A stretch of 64,000 bases of DNA from a virus. The notes beneath the pieces are model-generated. The model searched no databases. It worked only from the letters and a program-made list of their open reading frames with translations, and was not told the origin of the DNA. The translations under genes and the position numbers were made by a program. Positions within the stretch are counted from its first letter, which is position 1, and every line of letters begins with the position of its first letter. Location of the stretch: positions 19,582-83,581 of IMG/VR virus record IMGVR_UViG_3300005095_000128, one strand, 5' to 3'. Below, piece after piece: positions 1,948 through 41,030 of the stretch.

Positions 1948-2022
1948 TGGCTGGCCGGGCAGGACTCGAACCTGCACCGCCGGGTCCAAAGCCCGATGTG
2001 CTGCCGATTACACCACCGGCCA
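1948..2022 (-). tRNA. tRNA-Gln(UUG) with encoded CCA
   Basis: Cloverleaf TGGCCGG...CTTTGGA anticodon loop...GCAGG TTCGAGT CCTGC CCGGCCA G CCA. Confidence 0.95.
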
Positions 2023-2025
2023 ATG

Positions 2026-2100
2026 TGGCTGGCCGGGTAGGAGTCGAACCTACGACCAGGCGGTTAACAGCCGCCCGCTCTACCACTGAGCTACCGGCCA
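2026..2100 (-). tRNA. tRNA-Asn(GUU) with encoded CCA
   Basis: TGGCCGG TA GCTC AGTGGTA GAGC G GGCGG CTGTTAA CCGCC...GTAGG TTCGACT CCTAC CCGGCCA G CCA. Confidence 0.96.
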
Positions 2101-28964: not shown

Positions 28965-30467
28965 ATGCAGGTTAACCGTGTAAAGGGTATGTATAATAGT
29001 GCTCGTTCAAAGCTTCCTGGCCGCGAACATGAGATGACCTATAACGACGCCGGTGGCGCCGTCTTCATCGACGATGCGAAGCGACTCGAGCGGTTCATCA
29101 TTCTCGGCATCGACGAGGGGACGATCTACGCTACGCCGGAAGAAATCCATGAGCGTACCATCGAGCTTATTCGCGAGCTTCCCTATGAGACCTTCAAGCG
29201 CGTCATGATCGAGGCGGCACCGAAAGCGTGGCGCAAGCGGAACCCGATTGCGGCCATTGCGATCCGCGCCGCCCTTACCGACGATCGCGCTCTCATTTTC
29301 AACGATTTGCTACCGAACCTTCCTGGCTTGTTCAAGACGCCCTCCGACCTGCTTTACTTCGCCTCCATGTACCGTGGCGCGTTCAGGAAGCCGTTTAGCC
29401 GCTCGGTGCGCCGGTTCGTCCAGCGCAAGCTCCACGACTTCGACGACTACCAGCTTGCCAAGTACCGCAAGCGCTATGGCATTTCCACGAGCGATCTCCT
29501 AAAGCTCGCGCACCCGCACCCTGGCGATCGCAACGCTGTCTTCCACTACCTCCTGGATGGTGAATACACCGACGAACTTGCCGGCACCATCTTCGAGGGC
29601 CTCAAGCTGGCCAACATCGCCGGTACGGTCGACGAGGTGCTCAAGGTCGCCGAGCGCTTCAACCTCTCGTGGGAGATGCTCCCCTCGTGGGCGCTCAAGG
29701 ATGCGGACACCTGGGTTGGCCTCTACCGCATGGGCAAGATTCCGGCAATGGCGCTCCTGCGCAACGCATGGCGCTTTGACCGGGATGGCGTACCAGGCGA
29801 TGTTTTCGATAGCGTTGTGGAAGATCTCTCCAAGATCCACCGCCGTGGCGTGCACCCCGGGTACATCCTGACGGCCGCCATCGAGTTAAAGCGCCGCAAC
29901 GCAAGCTACGATTTGGTCGATGCGCTCTTCAAGGCGTTCGACGCCGCATCGAGTAGCAACGCTGCGCACGACATGCGCATCGGGCTTGCCATCGACAATA
30001 GCGGCTCCATGTGGTGGGGCATGATCGGTGGGATGTTGCGCCTCGAGGCCGCACTCGCGCTTGGTAGCGTGATCGACTCTGCCTTCCGGCGCGTATCGGT
30101 GACCTACTTTAGCAATAGAGCGTACAACCTCAACATCCGCCCGCGTTCCGCGCTCGATAGCTTCGAGGATACGTTGCGCGAGTATAGCGGAGGCACTAGC
30201 GTGGCTAGCGCTCTAAGCCACCTTGCCGATCGCCGTGGCGACGGATACGACGCGACCGTAGTGATCACCGACGAGCAGAACTGGGCTGGCGAGAGCGTGC
30301 AGATGACCTACCAGCGGCACAAGAAGACGCTTGGCAAGCTCATCATCGTGACCGTTGACGCTAGCGCGAAGGGCTCGCTCACCGACCCCAAGGATCCTGA
30401 CCAGGTGACGGTCGTCGGCTTGGTGCCCGAGATCGACAAGGTGATCGCTGAGTTCGTGCGCGGGTAA
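28965..30467 (+). CDS. rsr: Ro60/Rsr-like TROVE + vWA RNA-binding protein
   Basis: NDAGGAVF, RLERFIILG..GTIY, YQLAKYR, DLLKLAHP, MALLRN; vWA MIDAS DNSGSM, GGT, ITDEQ. Own promoter TTGATT-17-TAAGCT. Confidence 0.92.
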   Translation: MQVNRVKGMYNSARSKLPGREHEMTYNDAGGAVFIDDAKRLERFIILGIDEGTIYATPEEIHERTIELIRELPYETFKRVMIEAAPKAWRKRNPIAAIAIRAALTDDRALIFNDLLPNLPGLFKTPSDLLYFASMYRGAFRKPFSRSVRRFVQRKLHDFDDYQLAKYRKRYGISTSDLLKLAHPHPGDRNAVFHYLLDGEYTDELAGTIFEGLKLANIAGTVDEVLKVAERFNLSWEMLPSWALKDADTWVGLYRMGKIPAMALLRNAWRFDRDGVPGDVFDSVVEDLSKIHRRGVHPGYILTAAIELKRRNASYDLVDALFKAFDAASSSNAAHDMRIGLAIDNSGSMWWGMIGGMLRLEAALALGSVIDSAFRRVSVTYFSNRAYNLNIRPRSALDSFEDTLREYSGGTSVASALSHLADRRGDGYDATVVITDEQNWAGESVQMTYQRHKKTLGKLIIVTVDASAKGSLTDPKDPDQVTVVGLVPEIDKVIAEFVRG

Positions 30468-37727: not shown

Positions 37728-38253
37728 CAACGTGCGCACCATGCTCACCAATAGCAAAGACAAGGCAAAGATCACCGTAGCTGACCACGAGCTCACCATC
37801 TATGCGATCGTTGGTAAACGCACCAACGGAAAAAGCGCCCTACTTATTGTCATAGGCGATGATAATGAACAAGACCAGCAGCTAGGTATACGCTTGGATT
37901 TTTGACGCTCGACAGTTGTCTGTTGGTTGGTTTGTCTTGGGGTTTTGTCGGCGCTTGTGTGGCTAGCAGAGGGGTGGCCTAGCCTTCGTTTGCTTTTGGG
38001 GTTGTGAGTTTTGGCTTTTTGCGCTTGGTGCTTGGCTGGGTATCGGGGTGCTTTATTGGGGGATTCTACGCTCGAGAAAAAAGAGAGTACCCCCTCCCTC
38101 TTCAGTTGCTTCCTCGATGGAAAGTGTTCTCTCCCTCACAATCCATAATCATTCTAACAACACTTCCCACATTCCTTGAGTCCCTCACGCTCAGGCTTGC
38201 TGAGCTTGGCCGCCCATAGGGTATAAACTTTGACTGAGTTCAAAAACGCTAGA

Positions 38254-38348
38254 AAATGCGATAAGCATGGGCTTTATGCGCTACGCAGCATAAATGCGAT
38301 AAGCATGCATACTTTACATATGCATAGCGGAAAAATGCGATAAGCATG
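38254..38348. repeat. Three direct repeats AAATGCGATAAGCATG (iteron-like)
   Basis: Copies at 38254, 38292 and 38333 in AT-richer non-coding DNA. Confidence 0.85.
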
Positions 38349-38566
38349 GGTTTTATGCAAGCCGTCTGAGCTTGCCTACAGCATACCCCCCTGGGGGCGC
38401 TGAGGGGGATAGGCTTAGGGTGGGCTTGCGATAGATACGCAAAGCTTTACTTTTGTATAGCGTCTTGGAGGGATTCTAGGAAATGCGCATAGAAAGTGCG
38501 TAGATATGCGTGATATGAGGGATAGAATGCATAAGTTGGAATGTGTGTTCTGGTGCACATATGGGC

Positions 38567-38598
38567 TTGACACTAGGGTAGCATATATGCTACCCTAG
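38567..38598 (+). promoter_or_regulatory. Early promoter overlapped by a perfect 26-bp palindrome
   Basis: TTGACA followed by CTAGGGTAGCATATATGCTACCCTAG, which contains TGnTACCCT. Confidence 0.75.
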
Positions 38599-38615
38599 GG
38601 GCGTAGGGGGATGTT

Positions 38616-38804
38616 ATGAGCAAGCGCTACCGGCAAATCTACCTTGAGCAAGCCCAGGCGTATGTTGTTACGGCCTGGAAAGATGGCAAGCGGGCCGAGC
38701 GTCATGTGTTTACCCGCTACACTGATGCATCCGCATGCGCCGATGAACTGCTAAAACGATATGACGACGTACGCATGGTGTGCCCTGGTACTCCTGAGCC
38801 ATAA
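38616..38804 (+). CDS. Small early hypothetical protein
   Basis: SD AGGGGG, first ORF after the promoter. Confidence 0.6.
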   Translation: MSKRYRQIYLEQAQAYVVTAWKDGKRAERHVFTRYTDASACADELLKRYDDVRMVCPGTPEP

Positions 38805-38848
38805 GCGGGATAGGGGCCTTTGGCCCCTATCCTACCCCCCCTATCCTA

Positions 38849-38915
38849 CCCCCTCATGGCCGGCCGCCTTGACGCGGCGAGGGGGCTCCCCCGAGAGGGG
38901 GTCTAAGTGCCGGCC
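38849..38915 (+). ncRNA. HDV-like ribozyme candidate 1 (non-canonical)
   Basis: P1 CCCCCTC/GAGGGGG; P2 GGCCGGC/GCCGGCC; P3 GCC/GGC; L3 TTGACGC; P4 CCCCC-GAGA-GGGGG; J4/2 CTAAG with putative catalytic C at 38903. Confidence 0.75.
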
Positions 38916-39045
38916 GGGGACCTTGAAAGCCTAGCCCATGCGCCGCCCCGCCCATGCGCGTATGCCCCCGCGTATGGGCATAGGGGTAGGCTAGGGGCGC
39001 GTTAGGCCCATACGCGCGTAAGCGCGTATGGGCTAGGGGGTAAAA

Positions 39046-39477
39046 ATGACCTGGAGCGAATACTCACGCGAATACGAAAAACTAACTAAGGCTATCCAGG
39101 ACGCACTTGCGGCGCACCTTGGCAAGGGCGCCGCCAAGCGCTTGGTGTCCGCCGGCGAATCGGCGGCGCTGAACACCCTAAAGGCCTTAGACCCGGCCAA
39201 GGGCCGGGAACTGGCCAAGGCGCTTGACGCCTTGGCCGCCCAAGCGCGTAACGTGGCCTTAGATACGGCCACGGAATACGCAAGGCAAGCGCTTCAGGCG
39301 CGTGAGCGATACGAAAAAACGCTCAGCAAGCTCAACGCGCGTTTTTCGAGCAAAGGCGATAAGGTAAGTATTGCCCTAATGGGTAATACTTACACTTTTG
39401 TAATCAAGGCCGGGGGGCGCTTGGAGCTCATCCCCAAGACCCCACGGGGGGCCAAGGGCCCCCGCCGGCGCAAGTAA
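39046..39477 (+). CDS. Ala/Lys-rich basic hypothetical protein between the two ribozyme folds
   Basis: 143 aa, SD AGGGGGT, helical, with basic tail KTPRGAKGPRRRK. Confidence 0.75.
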   Translation: MTWSEYSREYEKLTKAIQDALAAHLGKGAAKRLVSAGESAALNTLKALDPAKGRELAKALDALAAQARNVALDTATEYARQALQARERYEKTLSKLNARFSSKGDKVSIALMGNTYTFVIKAGGRLELIPKTPRGAKGPRRRK

Positions 39478-39479
39478 GG

Positions 39480-40136
39480 CATAGGCGCATGGGCTAGGCT
39501 CAGGGGGCGGATTATCCCGCCCCCTAAAATAAACCCGGCAAGCCATAATCATCATAAACATTTTTCCAGGCTTGCCGGGCGGCGCGAAGGCCGGAGTGAG
39601 TCCAAGCTCCGGCCGGGGCCGCGGTTGCGCTTGCATCCCGGCCCTAAATACGCGGCCTAGTATTCGGCCGCGTATCGCGCCGGAATTTTTGAACAAATAA
39701 AGCGGGACTCCCTACGCGCTTGCCGCCGGCGCGTAGGGGTTTAGCGAAACGGCGGTGTGCCCCGGTAGGGGGTGCAAAAGTAGGCCACGGGCTTAGGGTC
39801 CTTGCGCTAGCCCGGGCATATGCGTGTACATGCTGCCATACGTTTAGTATCACGCCGCGCAACATATGCTTACGCAAGCTCGCCCGGCTACCTGGCTCCG
39901 GGTAGCCGTAGCCCGTGCTAGCGCGTAGAGAGGACGTGGCAACCCCGCCTATGGGCGGGCGGGGTTATGGCCGTGGCCGGGGCGCGTAGCGATATGCGCT
40001 AACGCAAGGCATTGCGCCGGAAAAGACTTCGTGCGCCCTAGGTGGACCACTGCACCACCCGATTGGTATTTGAACCGGCTAGCGGGTGGTGTGCAAGTGG
40101 TCTACCGACTCGGGTGGTGAATGCAGCCCGAGGTAT
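39480..40136 (+). ncRNA. ~650 nt densely structured non-coding segment
   Basis: Near-continuous hairpins and multiway junctions, with no credible ORF. Confidence 0.55.
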
Positions 40137-40205
40137 CCCCCGCGAATCCGCCCCGCCTTGACGTGGCGCGGGGGCTCGGCGCGTAGGCGCCGCGAAGAGG
40201 GCGGA
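40137..40205 (+). ncRNA. HDV-like ribozyme candidate 2 (non-canonical)
   Basis: P1 CCCCCGC/GCGGGGG; P2 TCCGCCC/GGGCGGA; P3 GCC/GGC; L3 TTGACGT; P4 CGGCGC-GTAG-GCGCCG; J4/2 CGAAG with putative catalytic C at 40193. Confidence 0.75.
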
Positions 40206-40254
40206 AGCCCGTAAGTCCTGACCCGCATGGGCAGGCTGGGCAAGGGGGTATACA

Positions 40255-40698
40255 ATGCTCAAGGGCATGCAAGTGCAGCGCAAGGCGGAAGTGCGTGGGA
40301 ACAACGTCAAGCTTCGTTATATCATCGAAAAAGATGGTGCATCGCATGGGATCTTCAACCAGGGCGGAACAAACAACGGCAAAACTGGCGTACTAAACCA
40401 CCTTTTGGCATACGAGCTCGCAAAAGATGTGTTTCCAAGCCTAACCGAGAGGGAAGTGGTCGAAGCGTTTGGCGAGTTCTACTTCCCAGATGGAACTTGG
40501 CTCGATTCTGGCGGCTACTACTATTCTATTGTGGCCACATACAAGGACAAAAACGTGATCACACAGGTGCACCGTGCAATCTTTGATTGGCTCCGTCGCG
40601 GCATAGAAGCAGCCGCGGCGCTTGAAGAGCGCCGCGGGCTCGAGCGGTGGCTCTGGGAAGAAGCCACCTTTAGCTTGGATGGACGGAGGGTTGGCTAA
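40255..40698 (+). CDS. Early hypothetical protein
   Basis: SD AAGGGGGT, 50 nt downstream of ribozyme 2. Confidence 0.7.
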   Translation: MLKGMQVQRKAEVRGNNVKLRYIIEKDGASHGIFNQGGTNNGKTGVLNHLLAYELAKDVFPSLTEREVVEAFGEFYFPDGTWLDSGGYYYSIVATYKDKNVITQVHRAIFDWLRRGIEAAAALEERRGLERWLWEEATFSLDGRRVG

Positions 40699-41030
40699 TG
40701 CGATACAGAATCGTTTACCGCGCCCCGGGGGTTCTTCCCCGGGGTACCAGGCGGGAGGAGTATTCCTCCCGCGACAAGGCAATGGCCCGTGCGGTGGAGC
40801 TAAGCCGCGCGGGGTACATGGTCGAGGTCTACCCCGTTTACCCGCGTCCAAACGGGCGCGAGTGGCGGGGTACGCCCCTACGCCTGGAGCCTAGGCCGGC
40901 GTAGGGGTGATAGGGCATGGCCAAGGTACGCCGCTACCCCGCCCCGCCCAGCAAGGGGCGGGGCTACTATCCCACATGGCTCGAGCGAGACGCCGGGCCA
41001 CTGGGCAAGTTTTCGTGGCGGAGGAAGTAA
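40698..41030 (+). CDS. Two small basic ORFs (40698-40904; 40917-41030, MAKVRRYPAPP..., 37 aa)
   Basis: SDs GGAGGG and AGGGGTGA, followed by a terminator. Confidence 0.55.

Follow-up and report, generated by a model that had tools for sequence, protein, structure and literature searches.

The stretch of virus DNA described here (the window, 64,000 nucleotides (nt)) comprises bases 19582-83581 of one virus record of 83,581 nt, IMG/VR IMGVR_UViG_3300005095_000128, which is 61% complete and contains large terminase and helicase genes. On its plus strand, two short elements, here called copy A and copy B, each precede a gene and have the nested double pseudoknot of the hepatitis delta virus (HDV) ribozymes, with two of the pairs that frame the predicted cleavage site reversed. 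Canonical HDV ribozymes have G1.U37 (or G1-C37) as the first pair of helix P1 and C22-G38 in helix P1.1, whereas the two elements and their relatives have C1-G37 and, as proposed P1.1 pairs, G22-C38 followed by U21.U39. We refer to this arrangement as the flipped core. The following features lie at the locus (P, J and L denote paired, joining and loop segments; ORF, open reading frame; aa, amino acids):

38807-38833, plus strand: GC-rich hairpin found by folding, with a 12-bp stem and a 3-nt loop, after the stop codon of the ORF 38616-38804 and 15 nt before the predicted copy A cut
38849-38915, plus strand: copy A, flipped-core HDV-like fold; predicted cut 38848/38849, putative general-acid cytosine C38903
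38849-38855 with 38879-38885, plus strand: copy A P1, 7 standard pairs
38858-38865 with 38907 and 38909-38915, plus strand: copy A P2, 8 pairs, T38908 bulged
38866-38868 with 38876-38878, plus strand: copy A P3, 3 bp
38869-38875, 38886-38887 and 38903-38906, plus strand: copy A L3, J1/4 (CT) and J4/2 (CTAA)
38888-38892 with 38897-38901, plus strand: copy A P4, 5 bp
39046-39477, plus strand: ORF of 143 aa downstream of copy A, basic C-terminus, no known family
40109-40132, plus strand: hairpin found by folding, ending 4 nt before the predicted copy B cut
40137-40205, plus strand: copy B, flipped-core HDV-like fold; predicted cut 40136/40137, putative general-acid cytosine C40193
40137-40143 with 40168-40174, plus strand: copy B P1, 7 bp
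40147-40154 with 40197 and 40199-40205, plus strand: copy B P2, 8 bp, A40198 bulged
40155-40157 with 40165-40167, plus strand: copy B P3, 3 bp
40177-40182 with 40187-40192, plus strand: copy B P4, 6 bp, followed by J4/2 (CGAA) at 40193-40196
40255-40698, plus strand: ORF of 147 aa, 50 nt downstream of copy B, no known family

No Pfam or PHROG family was found for the products of the 143-aa and 147-aa ORFs, and their description as early genes in the initial annotation is conjectural. Deposited phages include no close relative of the record: when 38000-41000 was compared with the phage collection by blastn, no match was returned, and the best terminase relatives in that collection are at most 33% identical.

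Two differently built copies share one core

The initial annotation had read the complete HDV order (P1, J1/2, P2, P3, L3, P3', P1', J1/4, P4, J4/2, P2') at both sites, and re-deriving each coordinate and pairing returned the same architecture. Written out and checked pair by pair, the helices of copies A and B contained standard pairs only. P3, L3, P3', J1/4 CT and J4/2 are common to the two copies, while P1, P2 and P4 differ throughout and are nevertheless fully paired, as had been noted. Two further features of that annotation were recovered, namely the one-nucleotide bulge in P2' (T38908 in copy A, A40198 in copy B) and, in both copies, a C-G first pair together with a potential P1.1 of G-C and U-U. 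The window contains the 13-nt core formed by P3, L3 and P3' exactly twice, and the remainder of the 83,581-nt record adds no further occurrence.

The fold recurs in phage contigs

A scan of IMG/VR with a 15-nt core gave at least 118 stretches. In a loose test of P1 and P2 pairing that ignored the junctions, 24 of 118 core-chosen sites passed, compared to 4.6% of shuffled flanks. Of these 24 passing sites, 13 share the junctions of the window copies, with CT following P1' and C[T/C]AAGA immediately preceding P2', and J1/4 and J4/2 are the same in all 13 family members of this core-only set. The set was then enlarged by further scans and by a covariance model, R1, built from 15 members lacking P4; the model scores copy A at 27.5 bits (E = 0.00019) and copy B at 28.0 bits (E = 0.00014). 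A descriptor with fixed J1/4 CT, L3 and J4/2 C-N-R-A, and with at least 5 of 6 P2 pairs as a selection criterion, matched 104 sites, 50 of them unique, in 2.24 Mb of retrieved viral loci plus this genome. The reversed sequences of the same 2.24 Mb gave no full-descriptor match.

Metagenomes contributed 13 further unique members in 14 of the 117 listed loci, each with C at +1. Among at least 120 listed stretches from bacterial genomes, 2 loci qualified; the others were unrelated, many of them being 42-nt matches in diverse bacteria. With so few qualifying bacterial loci, the family is essentially phage-borne. A scan with the linker and J4/2 word yielded 100 parsed sites, 46 with the core and 54 of unrelated sequence. 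The grammar of the family recurs in unrelated AT-rich and GC-rich phage contigs.

Five of 65 passing sites (L019, L022, L093, L128 and L153) were dropped as false. Four of them lack the CT junction; L128 has CT, a J1/2 of 25 nt, which is out of range, and imperfect P1 and P2. A relaxed general HDV descriptor gives chance matches, 17 of them in reversed sequence, and its single extra match in this genome, at position 76198 on the minus strand, was disregarded.

Helices covary around an invariant set of residues

A MAFFT alignment of 33 sequences misaligned the variable J1/2 and P4, and the counts given here come from the covariance-model alignment and from our own parse. In the alignment, which is fitted to the model and covers 44 distinct sequences, the pairing of P1 and P3 reaches 98.4%. 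Changes on both sides affect seven of their ten pairs, the observed values were reached in 0 of 500 shuffles, and slid registers gave 41-56%. The outer pair of P3 is G-C, A-U or C-G. P2, in our own parse and with at least 5 of 6 pairs selected for, is 93.7% paired in register compared to 22-43% when slid, and at least four pair types occur at each of its positions.

The P2 pair adjoining P3 is C-G in 43, A-T in 4, G-C in 2 and T-G in 1 of the 50 unique members. The initial annotation had given J4/2 as CTAAG or CGAAG; the bases were correct, but not the extent, since the covariation of this pair assigns the final G to P2 and leaves a J4/2 of four nucleotides, C-N-R-A. An insert of P4 size occurs in 16 of the 50 sequences, and a linker of 4-6 nt takes its place in the other 34. 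As a rule (13 of 16), the insert folds into a hairpin directly following J1/4 CU, with 0-1 nt left between its end and the J4/2 C, and the P4 hairpins of both window copies are likewise flush with these two junctions. The presence of U.G pairs identifies the strand. The covariance model and the search of related phage contigs, both proposed at the outset, show that P1, P2, P3 and P4 covary and that pairing is kept in the homologues.

Three flipped-core members (L148:2470; L140:2299, minus strand; L123:2981) carry AGUA...GAA in the P4 region, which we take to be a loop-E-type motif. E-loop variants of P4 are mentioned among known HDV-like ribozymes by Luo et al. (PMC13635239; here and below, papers cited by PMC number are cited from excerpts).

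The single-stranded parts are far more constant. L3 reads UUG-N-CGY in 50/50 members at positions fixed by the descriptor, with the fourth base alone free, and a covariance-model search in which the L3 positions were not fixed gave no other form of L3. J1/4, also fixed by the descriptor, is CU throughout the family. J4/2 is CUAA in 35, CCAA in 11, CCGA in 2, CUGA in 1 and CGAA in 1 of 50, the last being copy B; its putative catalytic C is present in 50/50 and followed by N-R-A. We repeated a control of Kienbeck et al. by replacing this C in the descriptor with A, G or U, upon which the only matches were spurious re-parses of elements with a proper C, with no independent match. The invariant positions correspond to HDV U20, C24, G25, C75, A77 and A78, in agreement with the equivalents first listed as kept, and the variable ones to U23 and N76.

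The same constancy extends to the predicted cleavage site. C at +1 is paired with G in both copies and in 50/50 unique members. The nucleotide at -1 is A in 38, T in 11, C in 1 and G in none of the 50; a G at this position would pair with C38 and break P1.1. P1.1 itself, G22-C38 plus U21.U39, is possible in all members and invariant within the flipped family.

Flipped elements and canonical ribozymes occupy the same operon slot

Family members lie between genes, with a median distance of 69 nt from the upstream ORF and 28 nt to the next, and 46 of 50 elements fall outside any ORF of at least 50 aa on their strand. In well-resolved cases, the start codon follows 6-131 nt downstream of the element. 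Copy numbers per record range from 1 to at least 7, clustered and on a single strand. Many GC-rich members are preceded by a tetraloop hairpin without a U-tract that ends 1-3 nt before the predicted cut.

One record, IMGVR_UViG_3300009481_000027 (G001, 42 kb; loci L057 and L188), contains seven flipped copies together with two canonical HDV-like ribozymes:

L188:2541-2612: canonical HDV-like ribozyme, RF02682, 37.9 bits
L188:3415-3472: canonical HDV-like ribozyme, RF02682, 33.7 bits

The canonical ribozymes have G1-C37 or G1.U37, L3 of the form UCC.. and J1/4 GG. All nine HDV-type ribozymes of G001 lie within about 9.5 kb of one operon (G001:26900-36420), each preceding a gene, one of which encodes an ATPase (phrog_19600). 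They share one order: stop codon, GC-rich hairpin, 1-2 nt, ribozyme, conserved leader, ribosome-binding site, ATG. In this slot, flipped elements and canonical HDV-like ribozymes are interchangeable. Relatives were sought for the protein encoded after copy B, with none found, and for the protein following a canonical G001 ribozyme, for which its own record alone matched; a comparison of orthologous sites across phages is therefore impossible.

Both window copies lie away from tRNA genes, as first annotated, the only ones in the window being the following:

1948-2100, minus strand: tRNA-Gln(TTG) and tRNA-Asn(GTT), 3 nt apart, with no ribozyme adjoining

Elsewhere, the flipped-core copy of L148 is located 76 nt upstream of a 10-tRNA array. 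Other loci showed further arrangements. Twister-P5 ribozymes were found at L066:2189-2279 (minus strand, 51.5 bits) and L100:9362-9452 (plus strand, 46.5 bits; gathering score 37.6), in each case on the strand of a flipped-core element that lies about 4.5 kb upstream in a large AT-rich phage contig. The locus L475 (REGX01102530.1, 1168 nt, minus strand) consists of about 2.6 tandem units of 447 nt, apparently identical by eye, each combining a hairpin and a flipped-core ribozyme with a ribosome-binding site and an ORF of roughly 110 aa. The repeats may represent a tandem array of genes, or else the concatemeric assembly of a small circular element.

Unflipped twins suggest a link to theta-type ribozymes

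A further scan kept the P3, the L3 frame and CUAAGA of the family and excluded G22. Among the 56 stretches obtained, 6 have P1 paired 7/7 and P2 at least 5/7. All six of these twins have a Watson-Crick 22-38 pair, C-G in three and U-A in three, compared to G-C in the flipped family, and their +1 nucleotide is G in four and C in two. In these few sequences, pair 22-38 appears to covary between the flipped family and its twins. With all six twins Watson-Crick at this pair and two of them starting with C1, the flipped family would be one compensatory swap away from theta-type ribozymes, and C at +1 would not be confined to the flipped core.

Some twins stand out by their surroundings. At L406:1097-1548, a phage transfer-messenger RNA (tmRNA) gene (1097-1492 according to ARAGORN) is directly adjoined, with no base in between, by a canonical minimal HDV-like twin with G1, as if the ribozyme made the 3' end of the tmRNA. 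Two twins, L443:1835-1902 and L399:8024-8081 (minus strand), combine C1-G37 with an unflipped P1.1 (U22-A38 plus C.U or U.U); the former sits in an array of 12 tRNA genes.

Probable cleavage and its alternatives

We consider it likely that both elements are plus-strand RNA motifs of a phage-borne subclass of HDV-like self-cleaving ribozymes. Judged by sequence analysis, the flipped family appears to be a variant of this class, and the initial proposal of a variant missed by standard descriptors and models holds at that level in view of its recurrence in many phage contigs, the covarying helices, the invariant equivalents of the catalytic site and the canonical ribozymes in the same slot.

The Rfam comparison suggested by the initial annotation fits this picture. 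At gathering scores, the window gave the two tRNAs only, and a permissive search of 38600-40500 gave five weak, unrelated matches. Each element was also searched alone, as a 91-nt stretch. In this setting, RF02682 was the top family for copy B (20.1 bits, E = 0.037, full length 1-74, P1 from 40137), and RF00094 was the third of four weak matches for copy A (12.8 bits, E = 6.4, P1 at 38849), so that both elements matched HDV families in the register first read. The resemblance of the copies to HDV ribozymes is real but far below the level of Rfam membership.

Several observations weigh against cleaving HDV-like ribozymes. Rfam missed both copies at gathering scores, with 20.1 instead of 44 bits for RF02682 in copy B and 12.8 instead of 50 bits for RF00094 in copy A. 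Single-sequence folding without pseudoknots gave no signal (z-scores of -0.40 and +0.46), and the minimum-energy pseudoknot-free folds of both copies are alternatives to the HDV-like fold; in copy A, the 5' strand of P1 is able to pair with the 3' strand of P4 instead. The hairpin before copy A is 15 nt away from the predicted cut, not 1-3 nt as in many relatives. Many family sequences stem from one cluster of closely related contigs, and the counts overstate the number of independent lineages. Since the P1.1 residues and C1-G37 never vary within the family, support for them comes only from the small twin group of six sequences. Finally, a G at +1 paired with U37 or C37 is absent, as +1 is C in 50/50. 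The nested part of the proposed fold, with P2 not counted, amounts to -25.9 and -29.4 kcal/mol in the two copies. Support for the fold is comparative, not thermodynamic.

The most serious rival is that the elements are conserved structured RNAs which keep an HDV-like fold and do not cleave, or ribozymes that need a phage or host cofactor, which we regard as unlikely but far from negligible. Non-cleaving roles could be, for example, 5' cap-like protection, translation enhancement or the binding of a protein or ligand. C at +1 speaks for such a role, as the excerpted review of the Luptak laboratory lists G1 among the invariant nucleotides and describes the cleavage-site wobble as essential (PMC8495972). 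So does the position 6-131 nt upstream of a start codon, like that of an element of the 5' untranslated region (UTR), and retrotransposon HDV-like ribozymes have been proposed to double as elements resembling internal ribosome entry sites (PMC6765202). On the other hand, the invariant residues are exactly the catalytic-site set, with the J4/2 C never substituted, and canonical HDV-like ribozymes take the same operon slot. Like minimal HDV-like ribozymes, the elements can do without P4, G does not occur at -1, and neither a terminator nor a platform sequestering the ribosome-binding site was found that would suggest a riboswitch. Deviations within P1.1 have precedents in the excerpts of PMC13635239, where two crystallised, fast HDV-like ribozymes have U:U or C:U as second P1.1 pair, and where a phage HDV ribozyme with U:A plus U:U in P1.1 cleaves fast and has G25 and the J4/2 C as essential residues.

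It is very improbable that the conserved sequence acts as DNA, either as a promoter with TTGACG as -35 box or as a protein-binding or recombination site. TTGACG does resemble the sigma-70 -35 hexamer and the elements precede genes, but a promoter scan gave no site that uses either TTGACG. Between TTGACG and the conserved block that follows lie 20 to 50 nt, a spacing that varies with the P4 insert, and in many relatives the hairpin abuts the element and leaves no room for a promoter. Four covarying helices and U.G pairs on one strand only would be unexpected for a site in double-stranded DNA. Weak sigma-70-like sites upstream, at 38230 and 38501, are not evidence, as the region has 4 such sites compared to 2.0 expected. 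Chance pairing in GC-rich sequence, or a functionless local duplication, is barely credible: the GC-rich sequence, the non-significant single-sequence z-scores and the mere two copies in the genome would allow it, but the copies share the core only, with every helix different and yet paired, the same grammar occurs in unrelated AT-rich and GC-rich phage contigs, reversed sequence gave no match, and the shuffle, covariation and reversed-sequence results all contradict it. The DNA-signal and chance readings together retain only a sliver of probability.

Under the favoured reading of self-cleaving ribozymes, we infer cleavage, its chemistry and its effect on RNA stability as follows. During synthesis of the rightward polycistronic transcript, each element would adopt the nested double-pseudoknot fold. 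The first cytosine of J4/2 (C38903, C40193) would act as general acid, a Mg2+ ion would be held near the U-G pair of L3, and the chain would be cut just 5' of C38849 and C40137. The upstream product would end in the hairpin plus a few nt with a 2',3'-cyclic phosphate, and the downstream mRNAs, which encode the 143-aa and 147-aa proteins, would start with a 5'-OH and the compact ribozyme fold, with the start codon 22-131 nt further on. The operon may in this way be split into separately stable, translatable pieces, which would make such splitting a nuclease-independent counterpart of the way RNase III processes early phage mRNAs. For bacterial ribozymes, a role in processing polycistronic transcripts has been proposed but not shown (PMC6765202, excerpt).

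A structured RNA between the copies

Two further features concern the RNA delimited by the two predicted cuts:

39478-40136, plus strand: non-coding, very strongly structured stretch of 659 nt, whose 3' end the predicted copy B cut would set
28965-30467, plus strand: Ro60 orthologue of 500 aa (TROVE PF05731, 2.5e-16; Ro60-vWA PF25045, 9e-15)

The minimum free energy of 39478-40136 is -358.6 kcal/mol compared to -292.7 +/- 6.4 kcal/mol for 20 shuffles (z-score of -10.39), and a long bulged stem lies inside it at about 40042-40108. The stretch contains no tRNA or tmRNA and matched no Rfam family, with weak unrelated matches only at E <= 10. A perfect long-range inverted repeat of 17 bp (38928-38944 with 39484-39500) encloses the 143-aa ORF, whose 5' UTR (38930-39037) is full of copies of a palindromic word of the GCGCGTATGGGC type.

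Ro60 proteins bind Y RNAs and misfolded RNAs, and the Ro60/TROVE gene lies 9 kb from the large structured RNA. It is possible, though doubtful, that the paired cuts excise a defined RNA of 1,288 nt (38849-40136), which is then circularised by a host RtcB-type ligase or handled by Ro60 instead of serving as an ordinary mRNA, the flipped core being a second selected HDV solution. Such an RNA would have 5'-OH and 2',3'-cyclic phosphate ends and would hold ribozyme A, the 143-aa ORF within the 17-bp stem and the 659-nt RNA. Circularisation or Ro60 binding of the 1,288-nt unit is speculation. Neither RtcB (PF01139) nor a DRB0094-type RNA ligase (TIGR02306) was found in the 61%-complete record, which says little on circularisation.

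Discussion

If the flipped elements cleave, the sequence space of the HDV class would be wider than published descriptors allow, and G at +1 would no longer be a rule. Reversing in concert the two pairs that flank the scissile phosphate would then amount to an experiment of nature on the construction of the active site. Rfam and motif searches based on G1 would overlook many phage ribozymes. Phages would use ribozymes as general operon punctuation, beyond the trimming of tRNAs, and a long-suspected role in the processing of polycistronic messages would become directly testable. The G001 operon, with its seven flipped and two canonical copies, provides a ready comparison set.

We found no published description of the flipped-core variant in a literature search that did not cover supplementary lists, Riccitelli 2014, Webb 2009 or Weinberg 2015. 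Used as a search word, the core occurred in papers within unrelated primers only, and nothing relevant was found on mutants of the G1C/U37G type.

In function, the proposed mechanism may be compared to a protein-catalysed system. RNase III processing sites lie between the early genes of phage T7, and their intercistronic cuts leave an upstream 3' hairpin. The analogy is functional only, as RNase III cuts within a double-stranded stem and the sites have no structural relation to the flipped elements.

In structure, the comparison is with the HDV-like ribozymes. The genomic and antigenomic HDV ribozymes (RF00094) have the same topology as the window copies, and copy B even shares CGAA with them; the G1.U37 wobble and the P1.1 of C21C22 with G38G39 are absent from the window copies. 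The consensus of RF02682 (Faecalibacterium prausnitzii) resembles the flipped family in its 7-nt L3 ending in ACGU, its Watson-Crick first P1 pair and CUAAGA before P2', but differs from it by G1-C37 and a P1.1 of U-A and C-G. The ribozymes described in the excerpts of PMC13635239 have a P1.1 made of one Watson-Crick pair plus U:U (or C:U), an arrangement like that proposed for the flipped family, and there the Watson-Crick pair is U:A instead of G:C.

Close parallels are found in the theta and minimal HDV-like ribozymes of Caudoviricetes, as far as these are described in the excerpts of Kienbeck et al. 2024 (PMC10879173). Theta ribozymes cleave at G1 and are defined by their adjacency to tRNA 3' ends, whereas the window copies have C1 and no tRNA nearby. 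The window copies further differ by the proposed P1.1 of G-C plus U.U, and both have a P4 hairpin instead of the minimal, P4-less form. In common with the flipped family, the theta and minimal ribozymes are phage-borne nested double pseudoknots with a 7-bp P1 and a 3-bp P3, in which P4 is optional or a short linker and J4/2 begins with the catalytic C. Like the flipped family, they occupy non-coding gaps in the sense orientation. Twins with the P3, L3 and J4/2 frame of the flipped family add to the likeness, one being located where a tmRNA ends and another among the genes of a tRNA array.

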